From contig NC_087251.1 in assembly GCF_037042905.1 (NCBI RefSeq), positions 45,510,001 to 45,574,000 of the forward strand: DNA of 64,000 nt. The letters run 5' to 3'. Origin of the DNA: Lytechinus pictus (Eukaryota). The position numbers were made by a program, and so were the translations under genes. The stretch's first letter is position 1, and each line of letters opens with the position of its first letter. Shown in pieces: positions 15,998 to 62,624 of the stretch. The notes beneath the pieces are model-generated. The model saw nothing but the letters and a program-made list of their open reading frames with translations. It made no database searches and was not told the DNA's origin.

Positions 15998-17819
15998 TGT
16001 AATATACTGTCAACTCACTATTTCATATTCTGTAGGCTGTTTTCTAATGCCTATTCATAAGATTAGTCCATTCTGTATCCTTATATATTAAAGAGAAAGT
16101 AACTTCTACTGTCATGACTCATTACTGTGGAATGTATCTTAACCATGGGATTGACCACTGGCATTCTGAATAAACCACTTGAGCTTAAGTTTTCATACTA
16201 CCAAGACATGTGTACCTGTCTCTCTCCTTTGTATTGAGTAATATAAAGGGTTGCTGGAACTGTTTGACTATTGAAATATTATAGTTTGTCCAGTATATAA
16301 AATTGGCGACAAGGATTTAACGAATTCTCCACGATGGCAGTGTACGGAAATATTGGAAGTTTTGAGGAGTCAATTGAGTCATTTGATGATTATTCGGACC
16401 GCATGGATGCTTTCCTTAGTGCCAATGCAATACCAGCAGAGAGGCAGGCTAATCTTTTCTTGGCTAGTGTCGGTCCTGTGGCTTATAAACTCCTGAAAAA
16501 CCTTTGCAGCCCAAGTCAGCCCAATACTAAATCGTATGAGGAGCTTAAGCGGTGTCTTAAGGAACATTTTAAAGTTTTGGACGGCTCAGCAAGGGGAGAG
16601 GGAGACAGTAGCAGACTTCATCGTTCGGCTGAAAAATTTGGCTTGGACGTGTGACTTTGGAGCTTTCCTGTTGGAAGCTCTTCGAGACAGATTAGTTTCA
16701 GGACTCCACCAGAAGATGTCACGTACCCAATGGCAGCTTCTCGCCATAAGCTTAACTTTTGAGAGTGCTAGGTCCCGTTGATGATGAGATGGCTGGTGCT
16801 GCTAATAAGCAGCACATGGGACCAGCAGTGGCCAGCAGTGAAGTTCATCGTGTAGCATATCAGGGGCATTACCAGGGTAACCGACAGTTTCCAAGGAAAT
16901 CACCTGGCGCATCCCCTCCTTGGAAGAATTCGTCTTGTAAATGCTGTGGAGGAGACCATCCGGCGGATAGATGCCGATTTAAGGACGCCACATGCCACAT
17001 CTGCAAGAAGAAGGGACATATTCGTTCTGTGTGCCGATCGAGGAGACGGGAAGAGGGACGAAACCAGTATGTTGCCCAAGTGCCAGATGGAATAAACTCT
17101 GACTCAGAAACAATAGTAGACCATGATCATGATGATGATGTGAATTATGTTGAGAGTAGTTTTGGATTACACAATATTGAGGGTGAGTGCAATCATACAT
17201 CTTTGCCTTATTATGTACATGTTAATATAGGTAGTACTAGTTTGGAAATGGAGGTAGATACCGGGGCGGCACGATCAACGGTGTCGGAAGTCGTGTATCA
17301 GTCTGAATTACCGAGATACCCTCTTCGTAAACCCAATATAACTCTACGTAGTTATTCCAAACATGTCGTACCCCTTCTTGGCTGTATTACTATACCTGTG
17401 GTGTATAATGGGGGGAGGACGGTGATGCTAGAACTTCTAGTAGTAAAGGGCAGAAGACCTGCCCTGTTTGGGAGAGATTGGCTAAACAAGATAAAGCTGG
17501 ACTGGAAAAGCATTTTTGCCATGCAAAATAAAATTTCTGTAACAACAAAGGAACAAAAGAGGGTTGATCCCAGCATAACAAGGGACAAGCTTAATGCTTT
17601 CCTACTAAACATGCAAAGTTGTTCAAAAAGGATAAGACTGGAATAAAAGGGTTCACTGCATCCTTAAAACTGAAACCGGATGCAAAGCCTTGCTTTCAGA
17701 AGGCTAGACCAGTCCCTTATTCCCTGGTGGAAAACGTAAATAAAGAGTATGAGAGACTGGTAAAGGATGATATTTTCTAGCCTGTCACTCACAGCGAGTG
17801 GGCGTCACCAACTGTTCAT

Positions 17820-18790
17820 GTGTCTAAAGCACAGGGTGCCATTCGCGTGTGTGGTGATTACAAGAGAGTGAATGAGGTAATCGAGGATGATGGTTACATA
17901 TTGCCAAATGCACAAGACTTGTTCGCAAAACTTGCTCAAAACGGTACCACTCCAAAAGTGTACTCGGTCATTGACCTTACTGGCGCTTTCAATCAGCTTT
18001 TTCTGGATGAAGAATCTGCGAAGCTTCTTGTGTTGAACACTCACAAAGGTTTGCTCGCACCAAAGCGTTTGTGTTTTGGAGTCAAAACAGCGCCATTTTT
18101 GTTTCAAGCTACCATGGACAAAATAATATCAGGCATGCCGAATGTCTTCTGCTATGTTGATGATATACTTGTGGCGACAGAAAGCATTGACGAGCGTATG
18201 AATGTACTCACAGAGTTATTTGCCAGGTTAACTAAGCATAATGTGCGGCTAAATCAGGATAAGTGCAAATTCCTACAATCCAAAATCAGATATTTGGGGC
18301 ATATTCTCACTGCTGAGGGCATTGAACCGATTCAAGACAAAGTTGAAGCCATTAACAAAGCCCCCAAGCCTAAGAATGTATCTGAATTGAAGTCTTTCCT
18401 AGGAATGATTAATTACTATGGCAAGTTCATTCCAAATCTGAGCACCGAGCTCCAGCCCCTCTATGCATTACTACAGCACTCAACTGAATGGAAATGGTGC
18501 AAAAGATGTGAAGCCGCGTTCACATATGCGAAAAAGGCCCTTGCTAGCGATAGGGTTTTGGTTCATTATGATGCTTCAAAGCCAGTTGTTCTAAGTGTGG
18601 ATGCGAGTCCATATGGATTAGGGGCAGTTTTAAGCCATAAGCTTGCGGACGGTTCAGAAAAACCGATTGCCTATGCTTCTAGGACTTTGAATGCTGCAGA
18701 GAAAAATTATGCACAAATTGATAAAGAGGGATTAGCTATTATCTTTGGGGTGAAAAAGTTTCATCTGTACTTGTATGGTCGGGAGTTTCC
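17820..18790 (+). pseudogene. Gypsy B pol: reverse transcriptase and RNase H N-half
   Basis: IRVCGDYK, IDLTGAFNQL, RLCFGVKTAP..FQ, YVDDILV, LKSFLGMINYY; upstream in-frame TAG and frameshift. Confidence 0.9.
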
Positions 18791-19421
18791 ACATGTTCAT
18801 TCAAGCGTGAATGTTTAATTAAACGCCTTTGAATCATTGAAGCATGTTAATTGGTCATGAACATAACGAAAAAGTTGAGAAAAGATCATTTTCAGTTACC
18901 AAAATGAAACAGTACATGCCTATGATATTTGAAAATCATATTTTTTGTTTTCAATAAATGTTCATTGAACCGTGAAACGATGAAAATTGTTGAAGATACT
19001 CTTCCCAAATATAACTGTCATCATATTCTATCATTTTTATTGATAAAAATGTGTAAAACATCCAATTATAGCAAATTTGGACTTGTGTTTATTCAACCGT
19101 GAAATTTAGCCAAAAAAGTTGTATCGTCTTTTAGAAAGTACCTTTTACAAGTCTTCTGACTATTTTTCATGATGAGAATGTGGAATTAGTTCCAATAAAA
19201 TGGAATCAAAGTAATGATATTTGGCTTGTGACTTTTGAAAAGTGACATTTTTGCCTTCTGACGGTGCTCACTGAAGCATGGCGTAAAATACGTCCATAAC
19301 TTTTACTCAGAGGATAGCTTATAAAATTACCTACACGCTCATGTAAAAATATATTAAAAACTCGCATCGGTTCGGAAATTATTGATGTTTGTTTAAGGGG
19401 GGACTTACTTTTTTTGTTGTG
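18790..19421. mobile_element. One-ended non-coding DNA-transposon fragment replacing Gypsy B integrase/3' LTR
   Basis: Abrupt switch from RNase H coding to AT-rich DNA; ends GGGGGGACTTACTTTTTTTGTTGTG|TA at a TA inside the 3' LTR. Confidence 0.5.
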
Positions 19422-19466
19422 TATAGTTTGTCCAGTATATAAAAAGGGACAAACTTCTGATATCCC

Positions 19467-20238
19467 TTCCTGGAGGGTCCTCTTGGAAAGAAGGGCTGGA
19501 GGTGTGCTGAGTTGACATTGGGCAGGGAGCCTCGGGTCCCAGTCTGTCTAACCGGGGGTGTCGCGAATTTCTGCGATCACCAGAGGTACAAGAACATTGT
19601 GTTCCCGGAGGGTCGTAACTGGAAGGTCTCGTTGGGGGTACTCCCCTGCTTCACTTCCAGTTTCGAGGAAGCAGACTTAGACGCCCTGGGCCGACTGGCC
19701 TGTGACCCTAAGACAAGCGCTCTCGGGGAGATTGGTTTGGATCACTTTCTCCCGCCCTCGACCTGGTCAAAGCAGTTGCTGGTCTATACGACCATCCTGG
19801 AGCAGGTCGGGGCTACTGGTAAAGTCCTCGTACTGCACCTGCGGGGACAAGAGGGACAAACTTCTGATATCCCTTCTCGGATTGTCCGAGAAGCAACCAG
19901 GAAAAGGGTCAACAGATATCAGAGGAATCATATCCACTGTTGTACCCTTGGACCTCAAGAGGTCGAGGCTTGGGGAAAAGTTTTCCCCAACACCTACTTT
20001 AGCTTCAGCTGCATGGTGAAGCATTTCACTGGGGAGCAGTTGGACGCCTTGAGGAGGGTCCCTCTTGATAAGCTATTGCTGGAAACAGATTCTCCATATC
20101 TCCCTGTTGGGGGTGTCAAATTCATGACCCCTGCATATATCGGGGAGGTGGGAGAGCACGTCGCCTCAGCCCGGCGGATATTTTCTCACCCTCATGAAGC
20201 GAGCTAGGATTAACCATCTGGCGCTCTATGGGGTGTAG
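19467..20238 (+). pseudogene. TatD-like DNase, second (tandem-duplicated) copy running to the C-terminus
   Basis: ALGEIGLDH, VLHLRG, HIHCCT, YFSFS, VPLDKLLLETDSPYL, TPAYI; frameshift near 20180 then FLTLMKRARINHLALYGV*. Confidence 0.85.
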
Positions 20239-21323: not shown

Positions 21324-22688
21324 GGGATTTTCAGAAAATGCAAAGTGTTGTAAATCATAGGAATCACAGAGGATCTAGCAGAAGAATGTAAAAGAATACT
21401 AAAGAAGCCAAATGATATAATGTCTAATAAGAATCACAATCTCAACCTCCTGTTTAAGATCTTGCCTTCAGGAAGAAGGTTGGGTTCGATGAAGTGTCGG
21501 ACAAGTCGGTACTCAGACTCATTCATGGCATTTTCTATTTGGTTGCAAAACCCAATCGGAAACGTATGATCCGTGATATCGAATGTCAACAGTGAATATC
21601 ATTCAACTGGACAATTTATCAATTTGTTTTCTTATTCCACACCCCCTCTTATCTTTATATATTTTCATTATTTAAAATATTTTTGCTTTGGAATTGCATT
21701 ACATGTTTCTTCTCCGCCGGACCTTGCTTCCTTCCTCTTGCTATTGTGCAATACAGAAACATCTTTGAAATATTAATCTTAGAACATCTTTCTTTTTAAC
21801 TGGTTTACTTCTTATTTACAAATGCATTAGCAATATATTTTTGGGTTACAAATTTTCTTTCTGCCAGATTTCTTTCAAACAGTGCAATAAATAAGTATCA
21901 ATGGAATTTTCATTTCTGTCCAATTTCATTTAAACCCAATTGTCTCTACAATAATTTGATTCCTTTTTTTTTATCGCCAATAGGTTATAATATTCAATTC
22001 ACTAATTTCAATTACATTTCTCAAAAACCTTTAATTTATAAATTGCCCTTTTTCAACGTCATTTCATCATTTTTCTAGTTTTATATTAGTGCAATTAATT
22101 GTAAATATTAACTAAGCAGTGCCCTTCAAAGTGTATAATTTCAGCATTTTTGATGATATGTACTTGTTATATTATGGAATCTTATATGTGACCATGACGC
22201 ATTTCTTGTGCTATTATTGACAATAAAGAATAAATTGAATTGAATTGTCAGCGTAGCCTCATCTGGACCAATACCACGTGCTCCTTGACTGATTATTTAT
22301 CATCAGTAGGATAGTCACAGCCTACCTCCATTAGTCAGTATTTGGTCAAGCTGGAACGAAAATGTGCATTTTTGTTATCAGATGATAAAGAAGACTTTAG
22401 AGCATCTACCAATATCAAAAAGTCTCCTTCATATTCATACACAAAATTCTGACAGCTTTTCCAAGTAAATGTAACATGTTCTATACGCACTGTATAAGAA
22501 TCAAATTTTCATTTGACAAAGCGCAAAATGAGAAGCAGATGAAGTGGCGATTAGACCATTTGGGCATTAGACTAAATAACAAAGAGACTAAAGTGAAAGG
22601 ATAAAGAGCAAGTGTAGTGTAGACAAAACGGAAATTTGACCAAATCAAGACTAGACCAAATGGGCTAGCCAATGTGGTGTTAGACATC

Positions 22689-23655
22689 TTGTCACCCAAA
22701 TCCTGTTTCTGTAAGCATACTCTGCAACGTAACTACTGCATCACCTTCAATTTATGGCTGATGTAGCCAAGAAGAGTTAAACACCATCATGATGTCATGG
22801 TAGAGAGAGCAGGTCACACTGTCACCTAAATCCTGTCTTTGTAAGCATACGACGCAAGATAACTACTGCATCACCTTCAATTTATGGCTGATGTAGCCAA
22901 GAAGAGTTATACACCATCATGATGTCACGGTAGAGAGAGCAGGTCACACTGTCACCTAAATCCTGTCTTTGTAAGCATACGACGCAAGATAACTACTGCA
23001 TCACCTTCAATTTATGGCTGATGTAGCCAAGAAGAGTTATACACCATAATGATGTCACGGTAGAGAGAGCAGGTCACACTGTCACCTAAATCCTGTCTTT
23101 GTAAGCATACGACGCATCGTCTTCAATGTAAGGCTGATGTTGCCAGGTGGAAGCACACATCATCCTGATGTCATGGTTAAGAGAGCAGGTCACACTGTCA
23201 CCTAAATCCTGTCTACGTAAGCATACTCTAGTTTCAAACGTAACCACTGTATCAGCCAAGAAGAGTTATACAACACCATGCATGATGTCACGGGTAAGAG
23301 AGCAGGTCACACTATCACCTAAATCCTGTCTATGTAAGCATACTCTGCAACATAACTACTGCATCACCTTCAATTTACGGCTGACGTAGCCAAGAAGAGT
23401 TATACAACATCATGATGTCACGGGTAAGAGAGCTAGTCACACCATCACCCAAATCCTGTCTCTGTAAAGCATACACTCTAACGTTATTACTGAATCATCT
23501 CCAAACTATACTTGAAGGAACCAGGTGAAAGCATACAACAGCATGGTGTTATGGTCAAGAGAGCAAGTCACATCATCTTCAATGAATGGCTGATGTAGCC
23601 ACATGGAAGCATACATCATCATATGGTGTCTTGGTTAAGAGAGCAAGCCACACTG
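22689..23655 (-). repeat. Tandem array (~130 bp unit, ~7 full + 1 partial) derived from the CINP C-terminal codons and stop
   Basis: Unit starts at 22689, 22819, 22949, 23079, 23195, 23312, 23442, partial ~23571; each aligns to 23653-23766. Confidence 0.92.
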
Positions 23656-23852
23656 TCACCTGAATCCTGTCTCTATAAGCATACTCTCCAATGTGACGAT
23701 GGCATCATCTTCTATATATGGCTGATGTAGCCAGGAGGAGGCATACATCATCATGATGTCACGGTTGTCATGGTGAGCTACATCCTCGACGATCACCTTC
23801 TTGACCTCAAGTTCCTTCTGGTACATTTCTTGAAGATGCTGAGAGGCTTGAA
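23656..23852 (-). CDS. CINP: CDK2-interacting protein, exon 5 (terminal)
   Basis: ASQHLQEMYQKELEVKK...SWLHQPYIEDD...LESMLIETGFR*, matches the CINP C-terminus (WLHQPY, LESMLLETG); acceptor TTGCAG, phase 1. Confidence 0.9.
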
Positions 23853-24338
23853 CTGCAACGAGGAAGAGCAGAAGAAAGAGATGCATTAGATGAAGGATGA
23901 GAGAGATAGGCTAAGTCACATTTATTTCATTTCATTTCATTTTTCATTTTTCATTTTTCATTTCATTCCATCCATTTTCTCTGGGGTGAACTTAAAGCTT
24001 TACACAGACACAATATAATATTTTCAATCATGAGCCTGCTTCACATATTACATGATGGATCTGTTTTCAAAGAGTTCTTACAGTAAAGATTCTATACTTA
24101 AGTAAACCAAAGGAATTTAAAAAAACAAATAACAAATTCCAGAGGAAAATCAGTTAAGGTTGATTCTTAACCTACCATGAGTGACCTAATGTTTTCATAT
24201 GAGTTCAATACAGTAAAGGAATGAGACACGGAATGATGTCGTATCTAATTCCAACTTCCAATTATACAATTTAAACTTGTACAAAGCAATTTAATGGTGA
24301 TATGTTGGTTAGAGAGATCATTATTGACCAGTACTTAC

Positions 24339-24465
24339 CAAACTTGCCTACTGACCAGCTTGTAAACAATGGACTGGCATCCTGGTCAGATTTCTTTTTC
24401 TGCTCCAATTTCTCCACACCTTGGAAGTGCTTAGTGATAGATGCCATCTTGCTCATCAGTGTAGT
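24339..24465 (-). CDS. CINP: CDK2-interacting protein, exon 4
   Basis: TTTAG|TTLMSKMASITKHFQGVEKLE...PLFTSWSVGKF G|GTAAGT; 127 bp, phases 0/1. Confidence 0.88.
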
Positions 24466-25584
24466 CTAAAATGCGATCAGAAAAGAATTTATTTTTTTTT
24501 GAAAAAAGTATAAGATTCTAACCCCTCATTTTATTTCAGGTAAAAAGTACATGGGCCTCAGGGTAATCCACAAAATAAAATGCCCCTTAGAGCCTTCATA
24601 AACTTTAAAAAGAGCCCCTGAAATTCTCAAAGGGTCCAATGTAAACTGTAACCAATGCAAATTTTCGCTTCTGAGCAAAAAAAAAGTACACAAGTTTTTT
24701 TTAATGAATTTTTGCACCTGTGCGATTAAAAAAATATTGTGATAAAAAATGGCAAGCTTAATAAACATTTTAAGGTACTGTTTTAAGATATTTGAAATGA
24801 TTCAATTTGACCAGATAAAGAGATAGTTTGTCACAACAATTTATCAAAAGTCGTTGTAAACAATTATGACAGGGTCCAATATGAAAGTATTGTTCAAAGA
24901 GAAAATTTCAAGAACACAAGACAAAATGGTCAATATACCAGATTACATCTACTCTAAATCCAAAGATAAAATCCTGAGAAAATGATTAGGAAGAAATATA
25001 ATGTTTATTAACTACTAACAACCTTTCAAATACGGCAAGTCACATCAATACAAATTTCATTGCAGAGGCTCTAATGAAAACTGGTGGGTGTTTCATAAAG
25101 CTGTTTGCAAGTTACAACTGACCTTATGAATGACTGTTGACCCTTTCTTTGGAACTAAATCAACGCCAATGGAAATCTGGTGTGTATCACTTACAAGAAA
25201 GAATCACAAGTCGCTCATAAAGTTGCTCGTAATTTAAGAACAGATTTATGAAACACCAACTTGGTTCACAAGGCTTGTAACTGATGACAAGTCATTTGCA
25301 ATAAGCTTCTGAAATTATACTTGACCAAATTTCGTGTTATGGAAGTGGGCCTTCGTTTTTGTTCATAACTGTGAATAGACCGTACGCATATGATTACATT
25401 ATCTCATAGCGCCCTCCCTCAGAGGATATAGAAATACGCTTGCAGAGTTATCAAAGATATGCAAACTGCAGATCACCAAACACATGCTAAGCATTGGCTT
25501 CAGCCTCTAAGATGGCGGCGAGATGAAGTCAATGCATAAGGTTGACCTGTAAAACTAACATGCAAGCAATAAAGTGTTACTTAC

Positions 25585-25720
25585 CATAGATGTATGTATG
25601 GCAGTCAGCTGTTCACACAGTGTCTCGAGGCCTTCTGGCATTCCATCATTCAGCTCACTCAAGAACTCTACTTCACTCTTGGTCCTCGTCTGAACATCAA
25701 GCTTGCTTTCTCTATCACTC
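25585..25720 (-). CDS. CINP: CDK2-interacting protein, exon 3
   Basis: TTCAG|...EGLETLCEQLTAIHTSM|GTAAGT; 136 bp, phases 2/0. Confidence 0.88.
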
Positions 25721-26162
25721 CTGAATGAAAAGAGACAAGCAGCAATTGATCTGTTTGTTTTCAATGAAGAATAGACACAATTGTTTGCCAACAACTTTAT
25801 GCATTGACAACAAGAACTTCAAGAAGTATTACATGTAGTATACTTGGTGATTTGGCCAATGACAAAAGGAGAGGTCATAAGTGAGAAGTTTTCAGTTTGC
25901 TATCATGTTATCAAATGCTGAGTCACAGTCAGTTTTGGTAGATCTAAATAGCACTTATTTTATAAGTTAAATTCATTGTCAGAAGAGATGCAGTCTAAAA
26001 TCGGATTTACATTTTAAACCTGGCAATTAAATTTAAAATCTGCAGTATATCCATTTCTGTTTCAACAGAGCATTTATCCTTGTGAAAACCTTTTCTTGTC
26101 TCCTTGCGTTATCTTTACAAACAGGTTTCACCGTTAGAAATCAAGATTGTACACCCACTTAC

Positions 26163-26325
26163 TTATATTGAAGTTTAAGATTGATGATCTTGTTGATGAT
26201 GTCGAAGCCTGCATCATTCATTCCATTCCATTTCTCAATATGATTGTGCCAATCGGCGCAGTGGTCCTTGATGACCCTAGCACTCCCTTGAAGCTTCTGC
26301 TGCTGATGACCAGATGGACTAGCAC
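26163..26325 (-). CDS. CINP: CDK2-interacting protein, exon 2
   Basis: GSARVIKDHCADWHNHIEKWNGMNDAGFDIINKIINLK, the conserved CINP N-terminal motif; 163 bp, phases 1/2. Confidence 0.9.
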
Positions 26326-26819
26326 CTGAAAGAAATAAGATTGCAATCTTCAGTTTATCCTTTTCTTCCTTCTTTGGTTTTGATGGCAACCAGTCAGAAT
26401 TGACTATTATTGCCACAGCTTTTAAAAGAAAGAATTAATAATCTTCTTTAAAAAAATTCAGTTATTCTCCTTTTCTTTATTTCTCCTTCATTTTTTTTTT
26501 TTCTTTCCTTTTTTTCAGGTAACTTTTATCATGTTTTTTTCCTATCATGCAGTAAAGAGTCTAGACAGAAATAAGTTTTTTTTACTGGGGATTCATTAAA
26601 CAATTTCAGGCATTTCTTTCCATCATCCCCATCAGTGGAGTCAACGTAGTTAAGCTGAACAACCGATGGTATATAGATTGAAGCTTTTTGGTCTACAAGG
26701 GGGTGAGGTAGAACATGGTCCACACAAATTTCTCATGAACCTTCCATAACTAACAAACTTTCTATAGTGCTGACAATTTTAAATAATTGTTGTAATTTTG
26801 TTAAGGGTTGGAATCTTAA

Positions 26820-27396
26820 AAGGGTACTCCAGGCTGAAAATAATATGATTTGAACAGATAAAGAAATATCAGACAAACAAAACAAAAATTTGATCAAAAT
26901 TGGACAATGAATAACAAAGTCCTGAATTTTAATAGATGATTTTGGTGAAACAGTTCTAAAAACATGTCTTAATGAATATTCAATGAGCAAACTGCTGATG
27001 TCATATGCCCACTTGTTCTTTTGTATTTTTATGATATGAAATTATGTGTATACAACTTTTTCTTTCAAGAACTAAAAAAACAAGTGGATTGACAATTGAT
27101 TTCATGAATAAGTTATTCATCGCTGCAAAATAAAGGGAGACATATCATGTACACATGTATGAAAAATTGAAATAATTATGATTTCAGGTAACATAAGAAA
27201 AAGGAAAGTGAAGATGTGACACTAATCACCAGCTCATCTAATGAATGATGATGTACATACATAGTATAACTCTCAACTGTTTTCACAAAATATTGCTTGA
27301 TTTTGAAATTCTATAGCTTCGTTATTTGCAATCAGATTTTGATCAGTGAATTTTACTTTTTTATGTAAATATAATTATTTTCAGCCAGGAGTACCT
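26820..27396. mobile_element. Non-autonomous Kolobok-like element (TTAA TSD); diverged relative at ~44526-45027
   Basis: TTAA|AAGGGTACTCCAGGCTGAAAATAAT ... ATTATTTTCAGCCAGGAGTACCT|TTAA. Confidence 0.75.
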
Positions 27397-28010
27397 TTAA
27401 ATCAGTCAACATCGATGAAAAAACACTTTTAAAAAATATGTTCTTCAAAAGATTTCATAATACCTTAACAAATTTAATACTCATTAAATACAACTTTCAA
27501 AAATAATATGAACCGGAATTGAGGATTTCAAGTTCACACATGATGATGGTGATAATTTTAAAGCTTCTAAAAAATTGTAACAAAGTGTAAAGTAAGGGAA
27601 AACAAGGGGGTGGCAAAGAGCAATTTTAAATAGAAATGACTGCCAGAATACAGATTTTCAGACATCCTGATTATTCTTCTCCTGCATCGTGCTCCTATTT
27701 TAAATTTTAAGAAAATTTCAACAAATTACCCAATGAAGTTGTTTTAATCTAAGAAAAGACTAAAGAAAACAAAATTCATATGATATATGTCCGGTCCCTA
27801 GAGATTTGCCTAATTTCAGTTTGAGATAATTGGTTGATGATAAAGTTGTAAGATATTAAATAAGGATGTGTCAATTCTTACTGATCTTGCCGAGCTAGCT
27901 GGGGAAAGGAGTTGAAATCTTTGATCCAATCCAAAAATCAAAATCATCAATCATCCCCATCCTGCCTCTTAAGTTCATAATTGCCATAAACCACTAATCA
28001 TATATTATGG

Positions 28011-28414
28011 CAGGGTGCTACATAAGCACTTGCCCAGGGCAAGTAAAAGTTATAGTCGGGCAAGTGTTTTGAAGTAAAGACCAAAACTACTTGCCCGAAT
28101 TGGGCAAGCAAAATTCTCACAGTAGAATTACCAAATTGGGTCGATATGATATACCGACCCTAAATTTGGTCATGGCGGGCAAGATAAAATCACTTTGTAA
28201 AAAAAATGCAAGAACGAGGTGCATCGGTTCATGTCAAAAGAGAGAAAAAAGGGTCAATGGTTTCTAAAACCTTAATATTTTCTTTGAAGAAGTAAAACTT
28301 TTTTCAAGGATTTTTCGGGCAAGTGAAATTGATTTCAGGCAAGTATATTCCAACTATTTAAAAATTTACTTGCCAAACAGGGCAAGTTCATCTAAAAAGT
28401 TATGTAGCACCCTG
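28011..28414. mobile_element. MITE with 7-bp TSD (P-element-like)
   Basis: ATTATGG|CAGGGTGCTACATAA ... TTATGTAGCACCCTG|ATTATGG; internal GGGCAAGT repeats. Confidence 0.85.
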
Positions 28415-28504
28415 ATTATGGTGATCAGAATCAGATCTCTCTTTCTCATCATCGCATCTTCACTCCATCCTCCTCCATGATCCATCAAATCGTACTCATG
28501 ATCT

Positions 28505-30325
28505 AGCCTCGAGGGCTCCGTGATGATATTCAAAAATATTTTTACATATACTTTTACATTACGGAGCCTTGACATGCTGCGCATACATGTAAACACGGAT
28601 GGATTTCCCTACGAAATCCATCTTTAGAACTAGAAATCACTTATATTAGTGGGATTTTATTTTTCTATTAAACCTTCATACGCCTAATGCGTATGAAGGT
28701 TTGAAAAATCTCTTAGTATTAATATGAATAAGTGGAACGCCTCTGGCAGTCTCGCCTGCATTACGCGATTCGATATAGCAGCAGTGCTGAATTTGAAAAC
28801 AGCTACAGTGTATTAAATAATTAATCACAAAAGAAAACGCTCATATGATAATAAAATATTATGCCCATTGACCCAACATGACCTTTGACCATGATCATGT
28901 GACCCAAGACAAGTGCAAAACAATCATTCATACTTGATTACCCTTATGTCTATGTTTCATGAACTACATGTGTAGATCCATAAACTTTCTAATTCAACAA
29001 ATACCCACAACACGGCCAAAGTTCATTGACCCTAAATGACCTTTGATTTTGGTTATGTGACCAGAAACAAGCACAAGATATTCAGGGATACATGTACATG
29101 GTTACTGTACTCTTATGTCCCAAGTTTCATGAATTAGATCTATAAACTTTAAAGTTATGATGACAATTCCACCAATACCCCCAACATAATCAAAGTTTGT
29201 TGACCCTACATGACCTTTGACCTGGGTCATGTGACCTGAAACTCACACAGGATGTTTAAGGATACTTAGTTGCTCTTATGTCTAAGTTTCATGAACTAGA
29301 TCCATAAAATGTCAAAGTTATGACAATTTCACAAATACCCCCAACATGGTCAAAGTTTGTTGACCCTAAGTGACCTTTGACCTCGGTCATGTGACCTGAA
29401 ACTCAGGCAGGATCTTCAGTGATACACTATCACCCTTATGATCAGTTTCATGAACTAGGTCCTTATACTTTAGAAGTTATGACGACATTTCAAAAACTTA
29501 ACCTTGGTTAAGATTTCGATATTGATTCCCCCAACATGGTCTAGGTTCATTGACCCTAAATGACCTTTGACCTTAGTCATGTGACCTGAAACTCAGGCAG
29601 GATATTCAATAATACTTGATTATCGTTATGTCCAAGTTTCATGAACTAGGTCTATACACTTTCTAAGTTATGATGACATTTCCAAACTTAACCTTGGTTA
29701 AGATTTCAATGTTGACGACGCCGCCGTCGCTGCCGTCGGAAACGCAGCGCCTATAGTCTCGCTCTGCTACATGTATGCAGGTAAGACAAAAATAAGAGGT
29801 TTTTTACCAGACCGATCTCGTGTATCCATTTGTTAACACCACAAATACAATAGGCTTGACCCTTGAACCGCTTCGTTATGACGTAGCTTCGATGAGCTAC
29901 GTTATAAAATGCCATTTTGAAGAACAATTCAAATTTTATTATTTGTTAAATGATAATTTTTATCTACATGTAGGCCTATAAATTGTTCTTCAAAACGGCA
30001 TTTTGTAACATAGCTCATTGAAGCTACATCATAACAAAGCAGTTCAAGGGTCAAGCCTATTGTATTTGTGGTGTTTATGAATGGATACAGGAGATTGGTC
30101 TGGTAAGAAACCTCTAATCTTTCTTATACTAAGAGATTTTCAAACCTTCATACGCATTAGGCGTATGAAGGTTTACAGATAAATCAAATCCCACAAATCT
30201 AAGTTATTTCTAGTTCTAAAGATGGATTTCCTAGGGAAATCCATCCGTGTTTACATGTCTTGTATGTCAAGGCTCCATGATGTAAAAGTATTATTAAAAA
30301 ATATCATCACAGAGTCCTCAAGGCT
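28505..30325. mobile_element. Large fold-back (palindromic) element, left arm interrupted by an insertion at 28727-29790
   Basis: 28505-28726 is the reverse complement of ~30120-30325; 29791-29935 is the reverse complement of ~29978-30120. Confidence 0.85.
28727..29790. mobile_element. Helentron/HINE-like non-autonomous element with ~160-190 bp internal tandem repeats
   Basis: Subterminal IR GTCTCGCCTGCAT / ATGCAGGTAAGAC, A-rich ends without clear TSD, five units containing TGACCTTTGACC, GGTCATGTGACC, AAGTTTCATGAA. Confidence 0.65.
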
Positions 30326-35928: not shown

Positions 35929-36066
35929 CTAAGAGCAGACACTGGATATTTCCTTGATCTTGTTAGCATGGACATCATGAAACGGCAACCAATCGACGGC
36001 CATTTTGACCTCTCCTGTCGCATCCATGAACCCTAGCTCCACCATAGCCTCAAGAACTTTCTCTTC
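35929..36066 (-). CDS. DGLUCY: D-glutamate cyclase, terminal exon 10
   Basis: CATAG|EEKVLEAMVELGFMDATGEVKMAVDWLPFHDVHANKIKEISSVCS*; 138 bp phase 0. Confidence 0.85.
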   Translation of the reverse strand, partial: EEKVLEAMVELGFMDATGEVKMAVDWLPFHDVHANKIKEISSVCS

Positions 36067-36533: not shown

Positions 36534-36808
36534 CTTGTCCACTGTTGGTAGAGCGTCCTTGATGCTCTGAATTTCTTCTTCAGTAGGGGGCAGTCCGATG
36601 GCCCGTCGACGATAGCGGTCATGTATTGGGCACAACCTCAGGAGAGCGAGAGCCGTAGCTATGGCATAACCGCCCCAGTTACTGACTCCAGCACAGATGA
36701 GGTAATCCGTTGAGGTGACCGTAGCAATAATGTCGCCCTTCGGGATATGGCTCACCACTCTTTCTTTGACCTTGCCCATTCCTATCTCGTTACCGCCATC
36801 TCCAATCC
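36534..36808 (-). CDS. DGLUCY: D-glutamate cyclase, exon 9
   Basis: GIGDGGNEIGMGKV...AGVSNWGGYAIA hallmark motifs of the DGLUCY C-terminal (DUF4392) domain; 275 bp. Confidence 0.95.
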
Positions 36809-41912: not shown

Positions 41913-42170
41913 CTGTGGTAAATACATGTCCCACATCTCTCGCTGCATTAAACAGAGCATCGATCCCTCCAACCTTCGCATTATTGACTCTCCCAGAGGC
42001 TGAATGGTAGAGTCCATCTTGACCCACTCCGGCTCGCTCTATCGCCACCAGGTGATCGAACCTAGGAGTTTGGCCATCTTGGGAGGTCAGGAAGGATACA
42101 GCATTCTCTTTGGAGGCGGACTGACCAGTAGGAGGGTAGCATTCTATAGGAATGGTCTTGGACAGGACAC
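41913..42170 (-). CDS. DGLUCY: D-glutamate cyclase, exon 8
   Basis: PRFDHLVAIERAG..DGLYHSASG...IDALF; 258 bp, phases 1/1. Confidence 0.93.
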
Positions 42171-42722: not shown

Positions 42723-42989
42723 CTCTTTCTACTAACATGTCTACCAGTTTGATCATCCATCCAAGAAGTCCTCCAACATCATCTATCACTAGCACCACGT
42801 CTTTGCCAAGGACCTGGAGCATGGTTGCCATGGCGATAGCTCCTGGAGGTCCGTCGGTCTCAAAGAGGTTGTCTCCCTCAAGCTTCACCGGGAAACCGGT
42901 CGTTACGGCAACTGATTTTGCATGGGAGAGTGACAGGGCAGCCTTCAGGAGATCGTCTTCTACAAGGAGATGGCCAATTTGCCGCTTTC
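42723..42989 (-). CDS. DGLUCY: D-glutamate cyclase, exon 7
   Basis: LLKAALSLSHAKSVAVTTGFP...ETDGPPGAIAMA; 267 bp, phases 1/1. Confidence 0.93.
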
Positions 42990-43385: not shown

Positions 43386-43586
43386 CTATATCCTCAATTG
43401 CTGCAGTTTCAAGTTTCTTAATCCTATCCATGGTAGCCTGAGAGAGGGTGCTCCCCAGGGGTGGGGTATCAGCAAGCCAGACTACCCTGGGGAGATCCTC
43501 TGGGGGTGGGTTGGGGTTGGGTTTCGTGCAGGGGGAATCCGTCAGAAGCATGCTACCAGGTCTGTGTGTGAAAGCCAATGGTAGTT
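43386..43586 (-). CDS. DGLUCY: D-glutamate cyclase, exon 6
   Basis: LPLAFTHRPGSMLLTD...IKKLETAAIEDI G|GTAAG; 201 bp, phases 1/1. Confidence 0.9.
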
Positions 43587-45092: not shown

Positions 45093-45212
45093 TGGCAGCT
45101 TTGACAGTTTCTAGACCAGTGACACCACACGGCCAGAACACTGCAACATCTCCTTCATGAAATCGAGTAGCTATCCCATAGTCAACCTTTTCAACATCTA
45201 TGCCGATGACAG
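45093..45212 (-). CDS. DGLUCY: D-glutamate cyclase, exon 5
   Basis: VIGIDVEKVDYG...GDVAVFWPCGVTGLE (DUF1445 FWxCGVT motif); 120 bp, phases 1/1. Confidence 0.9.
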
Positions 45213-48626: not shown

Positions 48627-48777
48627 CCGGATCTCCTATGTGCATCGGGGCTCCATGGACGTCTCCCAGCGGATGGGTAATCTGATAACTCTTCTCAACC
48701 AATTCCTTAGGTATGGGCTTCATGGAAACTACCTGGTTACCATAGAAACAGCCATACCCATGACACTGAACATTGCT
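48627..48777 (-). CDS. DGLUCY: D-glutamate cyclase, exon 4
   Basis: SNVQCHGYGCFYGNQVVSMKPIP...HGAPMHIGDP; 151 bp, phases 0/1. Confidence 0.92.
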
Positions 48778-49394
48778 CTGGAAGGGATAGGAGAAAATGA
48801 CCGAAATTAGTGTTCAGAAAACATTTGAAACCGTGAATGAATATCACTCAAGGATACTGTAATTCCAATGAGGAATATATAAATTGGTCTTTATTATAGT
48901 GCAAAATACCTTAAATACTGTACCAACATTTTCAACCCATTAAAAACTGGATCCTCAACAGTAACAACTATTTGTAATACATAATTACATTATGGTCTAC
49001 TCTGCACTTTTAATTTCTCCAATGTCAAATTAGTAAGATTATCTGTTACTCTAATATCTAATTGGTCTAAATTATGTAGGTTGAAATACTTGAAAGTGCT
49101 GCAAATAACATGGAGCAATGCTCTAGGCCAAGGCCGGAAATCTCTCCCCAAAGGTAGGGGGGACCAGGGGCTGGAAAATTTGACTAGCCCCCCCCCCCAA
49201 AAAAAAAAGGGTTATCACCAAAAAAGTATGGTCATCTCGTCCAAAATACATGTCTTATTTCGTTTTTGAATGATGTATTTCTTTCCATCATTTAAGACCC
49301 AAAATAGTAGGGGGGACATTTGATATTGTGTCCCCCCTACTATTTTGGGTGGGGGGGGGGGGGGGACACGTCCCCCCTGGGATTTCCGCCCATG

Positions 49395-52300
49395 TTCTAG
49401 GCGAGCATTGCATATGAATCTTTGGTATAGATGAGACCAGTGGTGAGAATACGGATACCATCGTAGCTGACATTGTGACAAAACGGCTTGGTGTCTCCCT
49501 TGATGTGGTTTGTAATAAGATCGTTCGCATCGTGTCGGGAGAATGAAGGATACACAATCATCTTTGACAACCCAAGCTGAACTGTCAGAATCTTCATCAT
49601 CTGAGTCAATTAAGGGAAGCATCTCACAAACGTAAGAAGAAACTTCACCCAAGATCGATAATCGTAAAGTTAACCAGTTAACCAGGAAGAATAAAGAGAT
49701 CTTGGATGATAGGAAAAAGCTCAAAAATTCTGGAATATCAATTGTAGAAGACCTGACGTCAAGAAATCAAAAGTTGCTTGCAATGACTCGGGAACAGATG
49801 GAGTAATTTCAGCTTATTCTTCGGATGGTGGAATAATAGCCTTTTTGATTCCTGCCAGCGGTGGGATAAGTGTCAAGAAGCTCATCAGTTGTGAAAGTGA
49901 CCTTCAACATATTGAACTTGTATACATGTAGACTTATAAATTATCTGCCGAGAACTTGCCATTTCAACATGCTTGTAATTGCTAAGATAATATTCTGATG
50001 CAACCCAATCTGCTCAATATTGATACTACATTGAATTTCATTTGTATTGTAATTTTTGTGGATTTTGATGTATTTTGAATTTATAATGTCTATTCTCTTC
50101 TTGCTTGAAGTTTTTTCAATTCCTCTTCTGTTTGTTTTACAGGAAACCATGTCGTATATTATGCTTTTTCATTCTTCCAGTACGGTTTTATGATAGAAGA
50201 CACATTGGATGAAACATGTACTCCAAATAATGATAATACCATAAGGAATGTTTCGAATGAAAATAAATTTGTAAACGATTATTTCGATATAGATATGTTC
50301 AATGCAAGATATGAAGATACAAAAAAACATTTATCCATAGCTCATTTTAACTGCAGAAGCCTTCCTATAAACTTTGAAGACTTTGAAATATTATTAAATA
50401 ACATATCGCACAAATTTAAAATAATAGGTATCACTGAAACTTGGTTATGTGACACTTTGTCGGTATAACCTAGATAATTATACTCTTTTGCATGAAAATC
50501 GAAAAAACAAAAGAGGTGGCGGAATTGGTTTATATATCAACAAGTCACTAAAATATATGGTGATTAAGGAATTGACATTTATATCAGAATCCATGGAAAG
50601 TCTATTTAATGAGTTGTATGGCAAACATATAACATGCAAGAAAATGGTGATTGGCGTTGTTTATCGTCCACCTGGACAATCTGTAATTAATCTTATAAAT
50701 GAATTTACTGCTGAATTGGGTAAAATAAATGCAAGTTTTCACAATTGTTTTATTATGGGGGATTTTAACTTGGATTGAATGAAAATAGGTTCAAATTCAT
50801 ATGTGGATAATATTCTTGACATTTTATACAGTTTTTCACCCCAGCCAATCATAGAAATCCTGACACATATTACATCATCATCTGCACCAGTTTTAGATAA
50901 TATTTTTACTAATGACAGCATCCATATGAGTTCGGCAACTCTTGATAAGTGATATAAGTGATCACCTGCCAGTATTTACAATACTCAATTGAAGCTTTTT
51001 ACAAAATAAGAAAGAGAATTCAACTTTAACCAATAAGCATGCTTTATCTGAGTCGAACTTGCAGTTATTTTCCTCAAAATTAAGTGAATTATCATGGAAT
51101 ATTTACAGAAGTGAAGATATTAATATTGTATATGGAAATTTTATGAGCAAATTCATGAAACTGTACAATGAATGTTTTCCTTTTAAATCTGCTGGCACTA
51201 GAACATGTAATAGAAAACAGTGGATTACTCGAGAATTTAAATACTCGAGCTATGTAAAAAAGGTCTAGATTATACAAGAAATGTCTTCACAAACCATCAA
51301 ACGTAAATGAAAAAAATTATAAACAATTTCATAATTATGTACCATGGAAACTAAGACAGGCAAAAAAAAACTTTTTCTATTGAAGGTTTATAGATGTAAA
51401 AAACAATTCTAAATCTACTTGGAATTTGATTAATGTATTGTTGAAAAAAATATTTAAAAATCAGTGAATATTGATACCATCAGTCTTGAAAATAGTAAAC
51501 TTACTGATATGTAGTAGATATTTCCGATGCCTTTAACAATTTCTTTGTAAATATTGGTGAGAAATTATTTGAAAACCAAACACGTACATGTTGTAATCCC
51601 TTTAAATCAAACTTGAATAGTCCTAATAACCAAACAGCTTTTTAAAAACCTATTAGCACATCTGAAAATTGTGAATGATAATGAAGAATGAAACTAGTGC
51701 TGGAATTGATTCTATACATATTAAGGCTATTTAACGTGTAATTTGTTTTATCAGTGAAAAATTGTGCAAAATCTTTAACCAAAGTTTAAATTCTGGAGAA
51801 GTACCAGATGACTTGAAGGTTATTCGTATAACTCTGATTCATAAAAAAGGAAGAACTGATGATATAAACAACTATCGACCAGTTTCTGTTTTAAATATTT
51901 CTTCTAAAGTACTAGAACGTTGTAATGTATTTATAATTGTTTACTTGATGTTGTTCACAAGCATGACATTTTGTTTAATTAAGAATCAGTTTGGATTTAG
52001 GCAGGGGCACCCCACATCTACAGCAATTTTAGAATACACAATATCAAGCAATTGATGCTGGTGCCTTTACAGTTTTCATAGATCTGTCAAAGCCTTTGAT
52101 GTAATTGACCATTCAATACTCTTACATAAATTGCATTACTACGGAATAAGAGGCATTCCTCTTACAAGTATGTGGTTTCAAAATTATTTGGATTCAAGAA
52201 AACAACCAACAGAAATCAACAATATAAAATCCGATTGTAAAACAACTAGATGTGGAGTACCCCAGGGTTCAATCCTCGGCCCTTTGCTTTTTGTGCTATA

Positions 52301-53445
52301 TATGAATGATATCACGGTTTGTACTCAGTTTATAAAATTTATTTTATTTGCAGATGACACAAGTATTTTTACTACAGGAAAAGATGCAAATTCTTTGTAT
52401 AAAGTGGTTAATGAGCAACTATCTAATATAAGTGAATGAACGCAAGCAAACAAATTAATTTTGAATACCGGTACTGAAAAAAAAACTATATGATAGTTGG
52501 TACACATCTAGTTGGTAATATTGATTTACAGTTGAAATAAGGAAATTAAAAATCTTGAATGTATTAAATTCTTGGGTATTAATTTAGATGAAAAGCTTTC
52601 TTGAAACTATCATGTCCACGACCTTTGCATAACGCTTGCTAGAAACATTGAAGTACTTTATAGGTTACAATTCTTACCACAGATGATCTTAAAGTAGATT
52701 GTATTTTTCATTAGTTTCATCACACTTAAATTATTGCAATAATCTGGGGGTTCACATCAAAAAATAATCTTGATAGAATTCTCAAGTTGCAAAAACTGGC
52801 AATTTGCATATAGTAACAAATTCAAATTTCTTGAGTCATAGTAAACCCTATTTAAACAGTTGGACATTCTATCACTGCATGACATGATATCATTAAATGT
52901 GGCAGTTTTTATGTTTTCATTATATAAAAATGCATTACTACCAATGCCTTCAAAGAGCATTTTACTCTAAATTGTAGTACATATAATACGAGATATGCCC
53001 AAGATTTTCATCTTCCCTTGGAACATATTTGTCAAAAAATACACTGTTTTTCAATGGTCCAAAACAACATACCCAAACTTATAAAAGACTGCAAATCATT
53101 CCAGCAATTTAAACGTTTATATAATAGTCATTTACATTCATTGGATATGACTTCTTGATATTCTAATATTTTGTACTATTCATTCCTGGAATCTCATTCT
53201 CTACTTTTCTTCTTTTCTGTCCTATCCATAGTTTAAGTTGATATTTGGTATCTTTTATGTTTAAATGTTTTCAATTGTAAATTATATTTTTGTAGGGAAT
53301 CATCATTGGCAAGCCCATATGGCTTCTTATGATTCCCCCACTTCTCATGTGCAATTATTTGTGAAATATACATTGTATAGATCTTTTGATGTTTTTAACA
53401 AGAGAGTGGAATGAATGAAATGAAATGAAAATGAAATAAAAATGA
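49395..53445 (+). mobile_element. Decayed near-full-length CR1-like LINE (ORF1 C-half, APE endonuclease, RT), antisense to DGLUCY
   Basis: ORF1 GISIVEDLT; APE HFNCRSL, ITETWL, GGGIGLY, YRPP, MGDFN, SDHLP; RT NYRPVS, QFGFR, GVPQGSILGP, FADDT; (GAAAT)n tail; many stops/frameshifts. Confidence 0.9.
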
Positions 53446-53505: not shown

Positions 53506-53707
53506 CTTGTACATGGAGACATTTGTGTTTTTCTGCTCCAGATTTCTGAGAGGAACACCCCCAGCAAGGAGGGCCTCGTCAAACGAAAAGCTGCACCCGA
53601 AGTAGAAGAAGCAAAAATCGTTTAATTGCTCCCCAAATTTCAGAAGGTCTGGAACTGTTTCGGCAAACTCTCCATTGACAAATACATTTAAGGCTCCCAA
53701 ATCAGTC
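53506..53707 (-). CDS. DGLUCY: D-glutamate cyclase, alternative exon 3b
   Basis: TCATAG|G TDLGALNVFVNGEF...FYFGCSFSFDEALLAGGVPLRNLEQKNTNVSMYK|GTAGC; 202 bp, phases 2/0. Confidence 0.88.
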
Positions 53708-54270
53708 CTATGATCGAGATATAAAAAAAAAGATACTTGTAATTAACTTGTTGACTCCTGCATTTTCTAACTGTCCTAGACTTAATTAATAATGGACGTT
53801 CTTGTTCCTGTAGCCATACTAACCCTCCACCAAATCATGGCAAAACTCACTGATTGAGTTCTTAAATCCTCATATTAAGATGATCTGAATAACCTTTGTT
53901 CATTATTTTGCAAAACAAATATTTTTCATTGTTGGATAAAATTTTTTAATGATTTTGCCATATTTTTTTGTCGATGAAATCACATCATTTTATTTTCATA
54001 GAGTGTATTCTTGCTTCAGCAGGTGTAAATATTTGAAATCTGACAAAATGAAAAAGAGAGGAGCCATTTTGTACCAATTAACATACAGCTATTTATATCC
54101 TCCTATGTTGCATTGATATATGTAAAATGCCATTTTGTCATTTAAATTCTGATTTTACTGAATTTGTAGTATTTTTTTTTCTTATGAATACATCTCACTC
54201 CAATTATTCAGATCAACTTCATATCAGCACAAAGAACCCCGGTGAGCTAAAATGTAAATATCCAAAATAC

Positions 54271-54466
54271 CTTAAAAGAAGAAACATTTCCCTTTTCCAA
54301 ATTTCGAAGAGGCACTCCTCCTGACAAGAGGGCCTTGTCAAAGGAAAAACTGCATCCCAGGTAGAAGAAACAGAAATCATTCAACTGATCCCCAAATTTA
54401 AGAAGATCAGGAACCTCTTCTTTTAATTTCCCATCATTGAATATGCAATAAGTAGACAGGTCAGTT
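54271..54466 (-). CDS. DGLUCY: D-glutamate cyclase, alternative exon 3a
   Basis: TCATAG|A TDLSTYCIFNDGKL...FYLGCSFSFDKALLSGGVPLRNLEKGNVSSFK|GTATT; 196 bp, phases 2/0. Confidence 0.85.
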
Positions 54467-54544: not shown

Positions 54545-55590
54545 TCAGATTCAGATTCAGATTCATTTATTTCACACCTCTTTAAAATACAAAAATACAT
54601 AAATACAAATAAAAATCTTATACGACAGAACAGATATTGACAAGTATAAAGTATAAGTAGTCATAAACAGATAGTAAAACACAGTAAATATAAACAATGA
54701 TTTCCGCTGTACGGCGGATGTGGGGGAAAGACAGAAAGCCATTGGCCTATCGAGGTCTATCCCCCTGATTACCGTACAACAGGAAAAACAAAACAAACAC
54801 AATGCAAGAAAGGGGATAACAGAGGAATTAAAATCCTAACTAACGGGGGAGAGGGGGGGGGGGGGTGGCAGGCAAAGGAGGGGACACAAGTGTTAATTAT
54901 TTAATATTGTATAATATTGTATTGTAATAAGTCATTATGGCGTATATACACATAAATATACTGATACAGATGTATATATAACATTTAGAATTTCACTTAA
55001 TTATTCTATATTTTATGATAAATATGAATTAAAAGAAGAAAGAAAAAAAAAATAATAATAATATTTGCACCAACATGCTGTATGACATAAGAGGCAGATT
55101 AAGCTATAGTACAGTATGTAAGAGAGCATGTTTGTATTTTCTCTTGAATATGTTTAATGATTGACTATCTTTTAAATGATTTGGAAGGCTGTTCCAAATC
55201 TGGGGCCCTTGATAGCATATACTTGCTCTGGAAACATCATATTTAAGAAGTGGAATATATAGGTCTGTAGAATTTCTGCAGTTATATTTATTTACGTTAT
55301 AGTTATAGAGGAAATATTCATTAATTGAGAGAGGAAGTAGATTATGTATAATAGAATACATAAAGACTGCAACGTGAAACTTATAAAGGTCATTCAAAGG
55401 GATGATTTGTAGTTTTTTGAATAATGGTTCGGAGTGAGCATAATAATTTGAGTTTGTTATAATACGGATAGACTGTTTTTAAAGTTGAAATAATCTTTGG
55501 AAAAGGTAGGCTATCTATGACATTGTCCCCATACAGTTATACCATAAGTAAGATGCGAGAAAATCATCGAATAATATAAATTTACAAGGA
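54545..55590 (-). mobile_element. 5'-truncated CR1/L2-type LINE with (CTGAAT)n tail
   Basis: LYYSMIFSHLTYG...HSEPLFKKL...YQGPQIWNSLP...FKRKYK; (TTCAGA)n on + strand at 54544-54565. Confidence 0.8.
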
Positions 55591-56010
55591 CCCTCAGATT
55601 TTCTTTTTCTATACTAACAGTTTATCATAAGCTATATCTTGATTTTTTTTTATTGTAATCATTACAATTCATAATTCAATTCTAAATCAAAGTGGGAATA
55701 AACTATAAATTATGTTAAAATTTTGGTCACTTCAACACTTTTGGAAATTTATAAACAAAATTTAAAACAACATGATATATATATATGTACATAAACACTT
55801 GCCATATCTGAGGGCAAAGAATATCAGGAAAAACTGAACAATTCACACAATCTTTTATATTGCATTAAGTTCCTACCCCTTAGAAATAAATCAGTAATTC
55901 AGAATCATAATTACATTTCAGAGCCTTGGGCTTCGGTATCTCTCTGCAGCTGCTAAGCTCCGAAAACAGTATAAAGGTCACATGAAAATGCCTCTAATTT
56001 CATTTCATAC

Positions 56011-56164
56011 CTTACATCCGAATCCTGAGAGAGTTGAGGAACATCAAACTGGCCTGGTTCCGAGCTAAAGATACAGGCCATGGGTCCATAGTTCAAACGA
56101 CAATACTCCCTCAGATCCGCTGCTACATCTTTGTGAACAGCCATTAGATTCGCTTGTTTGTATC
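56011..56164 (-). CDS. DGLUCY: D-glutamate cyclase, exon 2
   Basis: GYKQANLMAVHKDVAADLREYCRLNYGP...SEPG...DSDVR; 154 bp, phases 1/2. Confidence 0.92.
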
Positions 56165-62491: not shown

Positions 62492-62624
62492 CTGAACAGA
62501 TGCCAGAAGTGGCTGCCATGAAATATTTCCCTTTGCGGAACTGTAGTCTAACATCCTTTGGAGTTTGGCCTCTCATCATCTCCTGGAAGTTCTTCTGCAT
62601 ATCAGGTGCTCCTGTTGACGTCAT
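62492..62624 (-). CDS. DGLUCY: D-glutamate cyclase, exon 1
   Basis: MTSTGAPDMQKNFQEMMRGQTPKDVRLQFRKGKYFMAATSGICS G|GTACTG; phase 1 joins exon 2 to give TSGICSGYKQANL (DUF1445 N-terminal motif); in-frame TGA two codons upstream of ATG. Confidence 0.85.

Follow-up and report, generated by a model that had tools for sequence, protein, structure and literature searches.

Tandem-duplicated mutually exclusive exons are a known kind of splicing unit, in which homologous neighbouring exons enter the message one at a time and in which the inclusion of both or of neither breaks the frame (PMC8373072; PMC6071210). Decay of the messages carrying both or neither is a known mechanism of exclusivity (PMC6071210), and independent duplication of the same exon in different lineages has been described for ion channels and for MRP genes (PMC8373072; PMC6071210). 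In serpent exon 4 and in Dscam, a long-range intron stem lies near the either-or exons, and competing or bidirectional pairings loop an exon out (PMC4691838; PMC6071210). Mouse D-glutamate cyclase (DGLUCY), a protein of the mitochondrial matrix, converts D-glutamate into 5-oxo-D-proline; no enzyme that degrades D-glutamate had been identified in mammals before it (PMC5339696). In TON_0340, a PF14336 (DUF4392) protein, six acidic residues bind metal (PMC5132392).

The locus analysed here lies in a 64,000-nt stretch of the Lytechinus pictus genome, hereafter the window, and comprises two copies of a coding exon, 3a and 3b. They are homologous neighbours with the same phases and intact splice sites, and each is spliced between the same flanking exons, 3a being seen in this state in L. 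variegatus only. Such a mutually exclusive tandem pair is of a known kind, repeated exon duplication is also known, and both products are already in RefSeq: isoforms X1 and X2 of L. pictus (XP_054758178.2, XP_054758179.2) and of L. variegatus (XP_041468123.1, XP_041468124.1) are the same two proteins of 632 and 630 residues. These entries are automatic models, in which neither the homology of the exons nor their exclusivity, sample-dependent use or recurrence is remarked upon. The present analysis adds a sample-dependent switch, the same swap with the same motif change in two other lineages, and an intron stem. Compared with the catalogued tandem-exon cases, the recurrence concerns a metabolic enzyme, with one motif altered in every spare copy, and D-glutamate cyclase would join the few genes in which the same exon was duplicated more than once. 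DGLUCY (C14orf159) is absent from the main text of the human tandem-exon catalogue (PMC8373072), and no title or abstract on the pair 3a/3b was found in the literature searched, which lay largely outside subscription journals and supplements.

The coordinates of the gene are collected in Table 1. With 3b, the ten-exon model, running from 62624 to 35929, reproduces letter for letter the 632-residue RefSeq protein of L. pictus, and the form with 3a maps to the 630-residue isoform X2; residues are numbered on the 632-residue (3b) form throughout. The initial annotation, made from the letters of the window, had proposed two open exons of 196 and 202 nt separated by 563 nt, both with TCATAG acceptors and AAG|GT donors, leading to isoforms of 630 and 632 residues. 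All these features were recovered exactly, on the minus strand, and the two protein lengths match RefSeq. A search of the whole genome returned one gene with only two copies of exon 3; a second copy of the gene was not found in it. A pseudo-exon or an assembly duplicate is also ruled out, the two exons being alike at 131 of 195 nt, both present in the second species and both spliced.

Table 1. Features of the D-glutamate cyclase family gene and of the intron between exons 3a and 3b (positions of the window).
Feature	Position	Strand	Basis
Coding exon 1 (start codon, 133 nt)	62492..62624	-	Ten-exon model, equal to the 632-aa RefSeq protein
Exon 2 (154 nt, phase 2 end; common upstream exon)	56011..56164	-	Model and loose read/contig ends
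Exon 3a, alternative copy (196 nt)	54271..54466	-	Open frame, RefSeq mapping, spliced to exons 2 and 4 in run X5
Predicted stem, 5' arm, intron 24-69 nt below 3a donor	54202..54247	-	No change listed in L. variegatus runs
Predicted stem, 3' arm, 138-187 nt above 3b acceptor	53845..53894	-	Pair-breaking change at 53862
Exon 3b, common copy (202 nt)	53506..53707	-	Open frame, RefSeq mapping, spliced in runs X1, X6, X21, X22
Exon 4 (151 nt, phase 0 start; common downstream exon)	48627..48777	-	Model and read/contig ends
Exon 5 (120 nt; second invariant N-domain cysteine, Cys242)	45093..45212	-	Model
Exon 6 (201 nt)	43386..43586	-	Model
Exon 7 (267 nt; C-terminal PF14336 domain begins)	42723..42989	-	Model
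Exon 8 (258 nt)	41913..42170	-	Model
Exon 9 (275 nt)	36534..36808	-	Model
Exon 10 (138 nt to stop codon)	35929..36066	-	Model

Exon 2 ends in phase 2 and exon 4 starts in phase 0, and the proposal that including both copies or neither shifts the frame was borne out: with 3a and 3b together a stop is met 3 nt into 3b, and with both skipped a stop is met 46 nt into exon 4. Stops located far above the last exon junction make messages targets of nonsense-mediated decay. Both of these computed stops are so located, and such messages would therefore be decay targets; in the mechanism that we propose, mis-spliced messages would be removed in this way. The exclusivity had been called obligatory. This is shown for the reading frame only, by virtue of the early stops, and not for the spliceosome. 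Another RefSeq model, isoform X5, has as its first residue a methionine whose codon spans the junction to 3b. Use of a second GT at window position 56016, located 5 nt before the exon 2 donor, would account for it and shifts the upstream frame. This alternative GT looks like splicing noise.

Six of the 22 listed sequencing runs were examined, namely X1, X20, X21 and X22 of L. pictus, and X5 and X6 of a sister species ("organism B"), taken here as L. variegatus since its substitutions agree with the RefSeq proteins of that urchin. The RNA status of X1, X5 and X6 rests on their spliced contigs. In run X1, a contig of depth 17 joins exon 2, 3b and exon 4, and solely an unspliced piece of 171 nt was present on 3a. 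The L. pictus raw runs were sampled at about 6 in 100, giving 9-12 reads on the locus: six reads pass from exon 2 to 3b in X21 and five from 3b to exon 4 in X22, the depth on 3a being zero in both, and X20 shows depth on 3b and next to none on 3a. At this low read depth no spliced 3a was seen in the four L. pictus runs, and in this species the spliced 3a form is known from RefSeq alone. In L. variegatus, run X5 contains a 2334-nt contig of depth 27 that joins exon 2, 3a and exon 4, with 3b present solely in an unspliced piece of depth 3, and in run X6 exon 2 is joined to 3b (depth 9.8), 3a being unspliced only. The overhanging ends of reads and contigs that lie on 3a or 3b agree with exons 2 and 4. 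Among the joints listed for runs X5, X6, X21 and X22, none links 3a to 3b, at low depth and with assembled contigs that drop rare forms. The two splice forms that had been proposed, exon 2-3a-4 and exon 2-3b-4, thus exist: each exon is used alone (3a in X5; 3b in X1, X6, X21 and X22), RefSeq holds both isoforms in two Lytechinus species, and the dominant copy differs between samples of one species. The notion of a regulated switch rests on one run, X5, and the tissue or stage of the runs is not given.

We consider it probable that 3a and 3b arose by an old tandem duplication and enter the message singly, producing a common 632-residue form with 3b and a 630-residue form with 3a that is likely restricted to some tissues or stages, and that independent duplications of this exon took place in the lineages of the brittle star Amphiura and of the acorn worm Ptychodera. 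The 3b copy would be the default, by its purer pyrimidine tract (16 of 20 nt, vs 13 of 20 at 3a), and a cell-type factor would switch 3a on. The 3a form is predicted to fold like the 3b form and would probably differ from it in the activity or regulation of the N-terminal domain.

The encoded protein carries PF07286 followed by PF14336 in one chain, which is the build of the D-glutamate cyclase family. Mammalian DGLUCY (C14orf159) has the same two domains, and the urchin protein is 44-47% identical to four vertebrate proteins. Activity was shown for the mouse protein only (PMC5339696), the urchin forms being assigned by family. In the structure model, the N domain (residues 16-272) resembles the bacterial UPF0317 protein 2pif (Z 30.2, rmsd 2.5, 249 aligned) and the C domain (residues 320-632) resembles TON_0340 (4fc5; Z 32.3, rmsd 1.8, 248 aligned). 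Four acidic motifs of the C domain (362-369, 450-456, 494-506 and 606-613) are present and common to both urchin forms, and three of them align to TON_0340. The Mn-binding domain of TON_0340 (PMC5132392) is the counterpart of this C domain and not of the swapped exon; a metal site likely lies in the C domain, unchanged between the forms, and the swapped exon lies in the N domain. For this UPF0317-like N domain, no assigned chemistry was found in the literature examined. It is found only in vertebrates according to PMC5339696; unlike in that account, we find it also in echinoderms and hemichordates.

The GCSFSF motif had been assigned to a DUF1445/YcsI-like domain. Both exons match Pfam PF07286 above the cut-off, and this family is now named D-Glu_cyclase. 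The isoforms do differ in this conserved domain, as had been put forward, the RefSeq pairs of L. pictus and of L. variegatus being distinct only at residues 100-162, whereas the label of enzyme is given to them by family only. In the model, exon 3 covers a hairpin, a helix, a strand and helix around the invariant Cys134, and the start of the strand of Met161. Both forms keep Cys134 and its surrounding motif. The predicted folds are alike (mean pLDDT 90 and 92, same order of elements), a comparison in which the two models use different alignments and which cannot reveal a functional difference. From its conservation, we infer that Met161 may shape a pocket. An internal repeat of the N domain with two facing cysteines was also considered and is not supported, the profile alignment of the cysteine motifs giving a probability of 0.2% and an E value of 0.29.

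The core of the exon had been described as almost invariant in protein with many third positions differing, and the comparison of 3a and 3b agrees with this: over 40 codons, 36 residues are identical (90%) and silent sites are saturated, with 21 synonymous differences at 27 synonymous sites (pN 0.05, pS 0.77). Over the whole exon, 46 of 65 residues are identical, the synonymous difference is 0.81 (saturated) and the non-synonymous one 0.19, and the upper bootstrap bound of omega is 0.17. The synonymous distance between the copies is at least about 1.6, vs 0.11 between L. pictus and L. variegatus, and the duplication is thus much older than the split of the two species; four-fold sites alone, of which 11 in 18 differ, set the lower bound of this distance at 0.49. 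Each Lytechinus copy is without a different family residue. The 3b copy has Leu in place of Tyr102 and is also derived at position 132, and 3a, which keeps the family-type Tyr102 and Leu132, has Met161 and Tyr162 changed and is two residues shorter.

Between the two species, 3b shows 1 amino-acid and 6 silent changes (neutrality p 0.0007), and 3a shows 4 amino-acid and 2-3 silent changes (p 0.19), three of these four amino-acid changes being present in both L. variegatus runs. The difference in constraint between the copies has a p of 0.10-0.27. The claim of purifying selection on both exons is thus sustained over the long term by the core values, but the recent evolution of 3a is inseparable from neutral by the N/S ratio. 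The 3a copy was conserved over a long time and appears to be now freer than 3b.

The same exon is swapped in two other lineages. RefSeq isoforms X1 and X2 differ only within residues 97-163 both in the brittle star Amphiura filiformis (29 positions) and in the acorn worm Ptychodera flava (37 positions); this is the span of exon 3, and the swap in these animals is known from database gene models. In all three lineages one copy keeps the Met161-Tyr162 of the family, and the alternative copies have Ser-Phe (Lytechinus 3a), Thr-Phe (Amphiura X2) or Val-Phe (Ptychodera X2) at these positions. Asn158 is also lost in the 3a of L. variegatus and in the alternative copies of Amphiura and Ptychodera, and a change of Phe136 to Tyr is common to the latter two. 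Of 109 other distinct exon peptides, mostly from vertebrates and so not independent, 104 retain Met161. The five exceptions are two starfish, one crinoid, one poorly aligned model and one gap; the starfish and crinoid forms without Met161 are single annotated ones. Met161 is also present at 10 of 10 bacterial genome loci with the N domain, an eleventh locus that matched the C domain only being outside this count, and in both solved bacterial structures (2PIF, 3DB9). Tyr162 is replaced by Phe in 15 of the 109 ordinary peptides too, and is thus a weaker mark than Met161. One exon 3 form per gene was found in the protein clusters of Strongylocentrotus, Diadema, Asterias, Holothuria, Apostichopus, Glandiceps and the crinoid Anneissia, and no alternative-type exon 3 was seen among the vertebrate cluster representatives examined, in a sampling that left out amphioxus, protostomes and further urchins.

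In the reading that we prefer, the Amphiura and Ptychodera lines would each have acquired their own duplicate of exon 3, because with its phase 2 and phase 0 ends any copy would immediately be an either-or exon, and the spare copies would each have changed the loop and strand at residues 146-162, Met161 included. The recurrent swap points to a tunable site in the N-terminal domain and supplies ready-made isoform pairs for assay. A bolder proposal, which we advance only tentatively and hold to be doubtful, is that the same switch arose separately in urchins, brittle stars and acorn worms: a second exon 3 with the catalytic-looking cysteine motif kept and Met161-Tyr162 (often also Asn158) replaced would yield an enzyme specific to certain cell types and differing in substrate, direction or domain coupling, and the choice in Lytechinus would be set by a single stem between the exons. 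If this were true, the pairs would be natural mutants revealing the role of the N domain in D-amino-acid metabolism.

It seems unlikely that 3a is a spare copy used in some cells without functional effect, or one that slowly decays, the changes shared between lineages being those at the positions first tolerated. Were the two forms equivalent, the pair would be an ordinary either-or exon already listed by RefSeq. The counts of recent changes lean in this direction, 3a having 3 fixed and 2 further polymorphic amino-acid changes between or within the two species vs 1 in 3b, but its rate of amino-acid change is below that of introns (p 0.03-0.08), and its frame and splice sites are intact and 36 of 40 core residues are retained despite the saturation of silent sites. 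Similarly, spliced 3a is unseen in the L. pictus runs examined, but run X5 contains it, at depth 27, as its sole spliced form. The alternative exon of Ptychodera breaks 10 of 21 conserved positions, as a decaying copy might. With breaks placed at random on these 21 positions, at least one shared position is expected in 22-40 cases in 100, and two in 1-6 in 100; the probability of chance sharing of changes under relaxed selection is put at 5-40%. However, in each of the three lineages the breaks are concentrated within residues 146-161.

The number of duplications was addressed with a free tree of 26 exon peptides and a test of forced grouping under a mixture model. In the free tree each alternative copy groups with its own lineage, the urchin 3a falling within a starred echinoid clade. 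A constraint that joins all four alternative exons lowers the log-likelihood by 13 units, and one origin of them all is not rejected by this test (p-AU 0.063). On a fixed species tree (LG+G4, whole exon), a shared ambulacrarian origin (p-AU 0.002) and a shared eleutherozoan origin (p-AU 0.017) are both rejected, and shared origins are rejected with the core alone too (p-AU 0.0001 for the shared origin). A shared origin is not rejected with the flanks alone (p-AU 0.57); it is favoured by the last 10 residues, with a gain of 5-8 log-likelihood units, but not by the first 17. Within urchins, the best placement of 3a is the echinoid stem, Lytechinus-only and camarodont placements not being rejected. 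Three separate duplications with parallel change at the exon end are favoured over one old duplication with conversion. The latter would consist of a single duplication in the ambulacrarian ancestor that urchins, brittle stars and acorn worms have retained, after which gene conversion from the neighbouring exon repeatedly overwrote the middle of the alternative exon and left a trace of the shared origin in its ends only. We find this improbable. It would fit the values of the free tree, of the flanks and of the last 10 residues, the family-type Tyr102 and Leu132 of 3a where 3b is derived, and the contrast in urchins between a core 90% identical and first 17 residues 35% identical between copies, 3b and sea cucumber being 71% identical there. 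It is at odds with the tests on the species tree and with the lack of support from the first 17 residues; also, the saturation of silent sites in the core argues against recent gene conversion. Since Strongylocentrotus, Diadema, Asterias, Holothuria, Apostichopus and Glandiceps have no second form in their clusters, a single origin would further need many losses or missed annotations.

It is very improbable that 3a is by design a weakened or inactive subunit, by which the switch would turn the N-terminal domain down instead of retuning it: 3a does lose a residue kept from bacteria to birds, the alternative exons of Amphiura and Ptychodera lose more (Asn158 and Phe136 included) and the mammalian enzyme is reportedly a dimer, but 3a keeps Cys134, the whole surrounding motif and the Tyr102 that 3b has lost, and starfish live with a single annotated form without Met161.

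Several related genes are worth recording. The Amphiura isoform X3 leaves the alternative exon halfway by an internal donor and joins the next exon, which removes the cysteine motif. Ptychodera has two D-glutamate cyclase genes with adjacent accession numbers and records of equal length, one of which shows the exon swap. The single annotated form of Asterias is without both Asn158 and Met161, like the alternative exons, and may be an alternative-type copy, the usual one being lost or unannotated. A second gene of Apostichopus and the crinoid protein have an intact N domain and have lost the acidic motifs of the C domain, and thus the N domain can be kept alone. Also, metagenome contigs (L003:2225-4865, and L004-L006) carry an intron-containing, animal-like gene of the D-glutamate cyclase family, with an intron apparently at the same Arg-Thr position, Asp at 158, Val at 161 and a degenerate C domain; no urchin loci were found in this metagenome scan.

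As for the choice between 3a and 3b, all four splice sites are ordinary GT/AG sites (donors GTATTT and GTAGCT), and candidate branch points lie 39 nt above both acceptors. Mixed U2/U12 sites are absent around the two exons, so that spliceosome incompatibility does not apply. Steric exclusivity is expected where the branch point of the second exon lies within about 50-60 nt of the donor of the first. In the middle intron, several AG lie between the candidate branch point of 3b and its acceptor, and branch-like words occur 44 and 55 nt below the 3a donor, within a stem arm; all of these are predicted branch points.

The two stem arms (Table 1) pair over 39 bp at -43.9 kcal/mol, a value reached by 0 of 100 shuffles in a 55-nt scan, and the stem persists in a larger fold. 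A first scan at 30 nt had been borderline (2 of 40 shuffles), and the folding energy of the whole intron is ordinary (z -0.19). Among ten control intron windows, one pairs more strongly than the stem and another nearly equals it. The control window 49002-49564, with an internal pairing of -56.6 kcal/mol and many repeat-derived reads, is probably a small repeat element. L. variegatus shows 1 change in 85 stem-arm nt vs 25 in 365 other nt of the intron (p 0.03), a count for two species that omits 31 nt at contig ends and concerns a conserved stretch noticed before the stem. The sole change in the arms breaks one pair and is found in run X6 and not in X5, and there are no compensatory changes between the two species. 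Over 17 kb, the next best partners of the arms reach -34.2 and -28.9 kcal/mol, in a scan that weak or short sites could escape. With no rival partner the stem is not a docking-selector system, and in contrast to the competing or bidirectional pairings of serpent and Dscam, this one stem lies wholly between the exons and loops no exon out. We propose as a hypothesis that it helps to set the choice between 3a and 3b. An origin of the stem from transposon ends was rejected, the stretch being a single match in the genome by a search that skips very common words. The intron ends before 3a and 3b show no homology above chance (347 of 2000 shuffles; outside the top 8 of 45 acceptor pairs), and a scan for consensus words of splicing factors gave nothing telling near either exon.

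Other features were noted in the window. Broken fragments like LINE-type reverse transcriptase were seen by eye in the introns flanking the pair, at 51735-52960 (+) and 55107-55620 (-). At 16301-18815 (+) lie fragments, interrupted by stop codons and frameshifts, that resemble LTR retrotransposon gag, protease and reverse transcriptase; they are flanked by two related open stretches like a TatD-type nuclease (15692-16057 and 19461-20204, +), all again recognised by eye. Finally, 22484-28608 (-) contains exons of the next gene downstream, the last exon of which is present in repeated copies.
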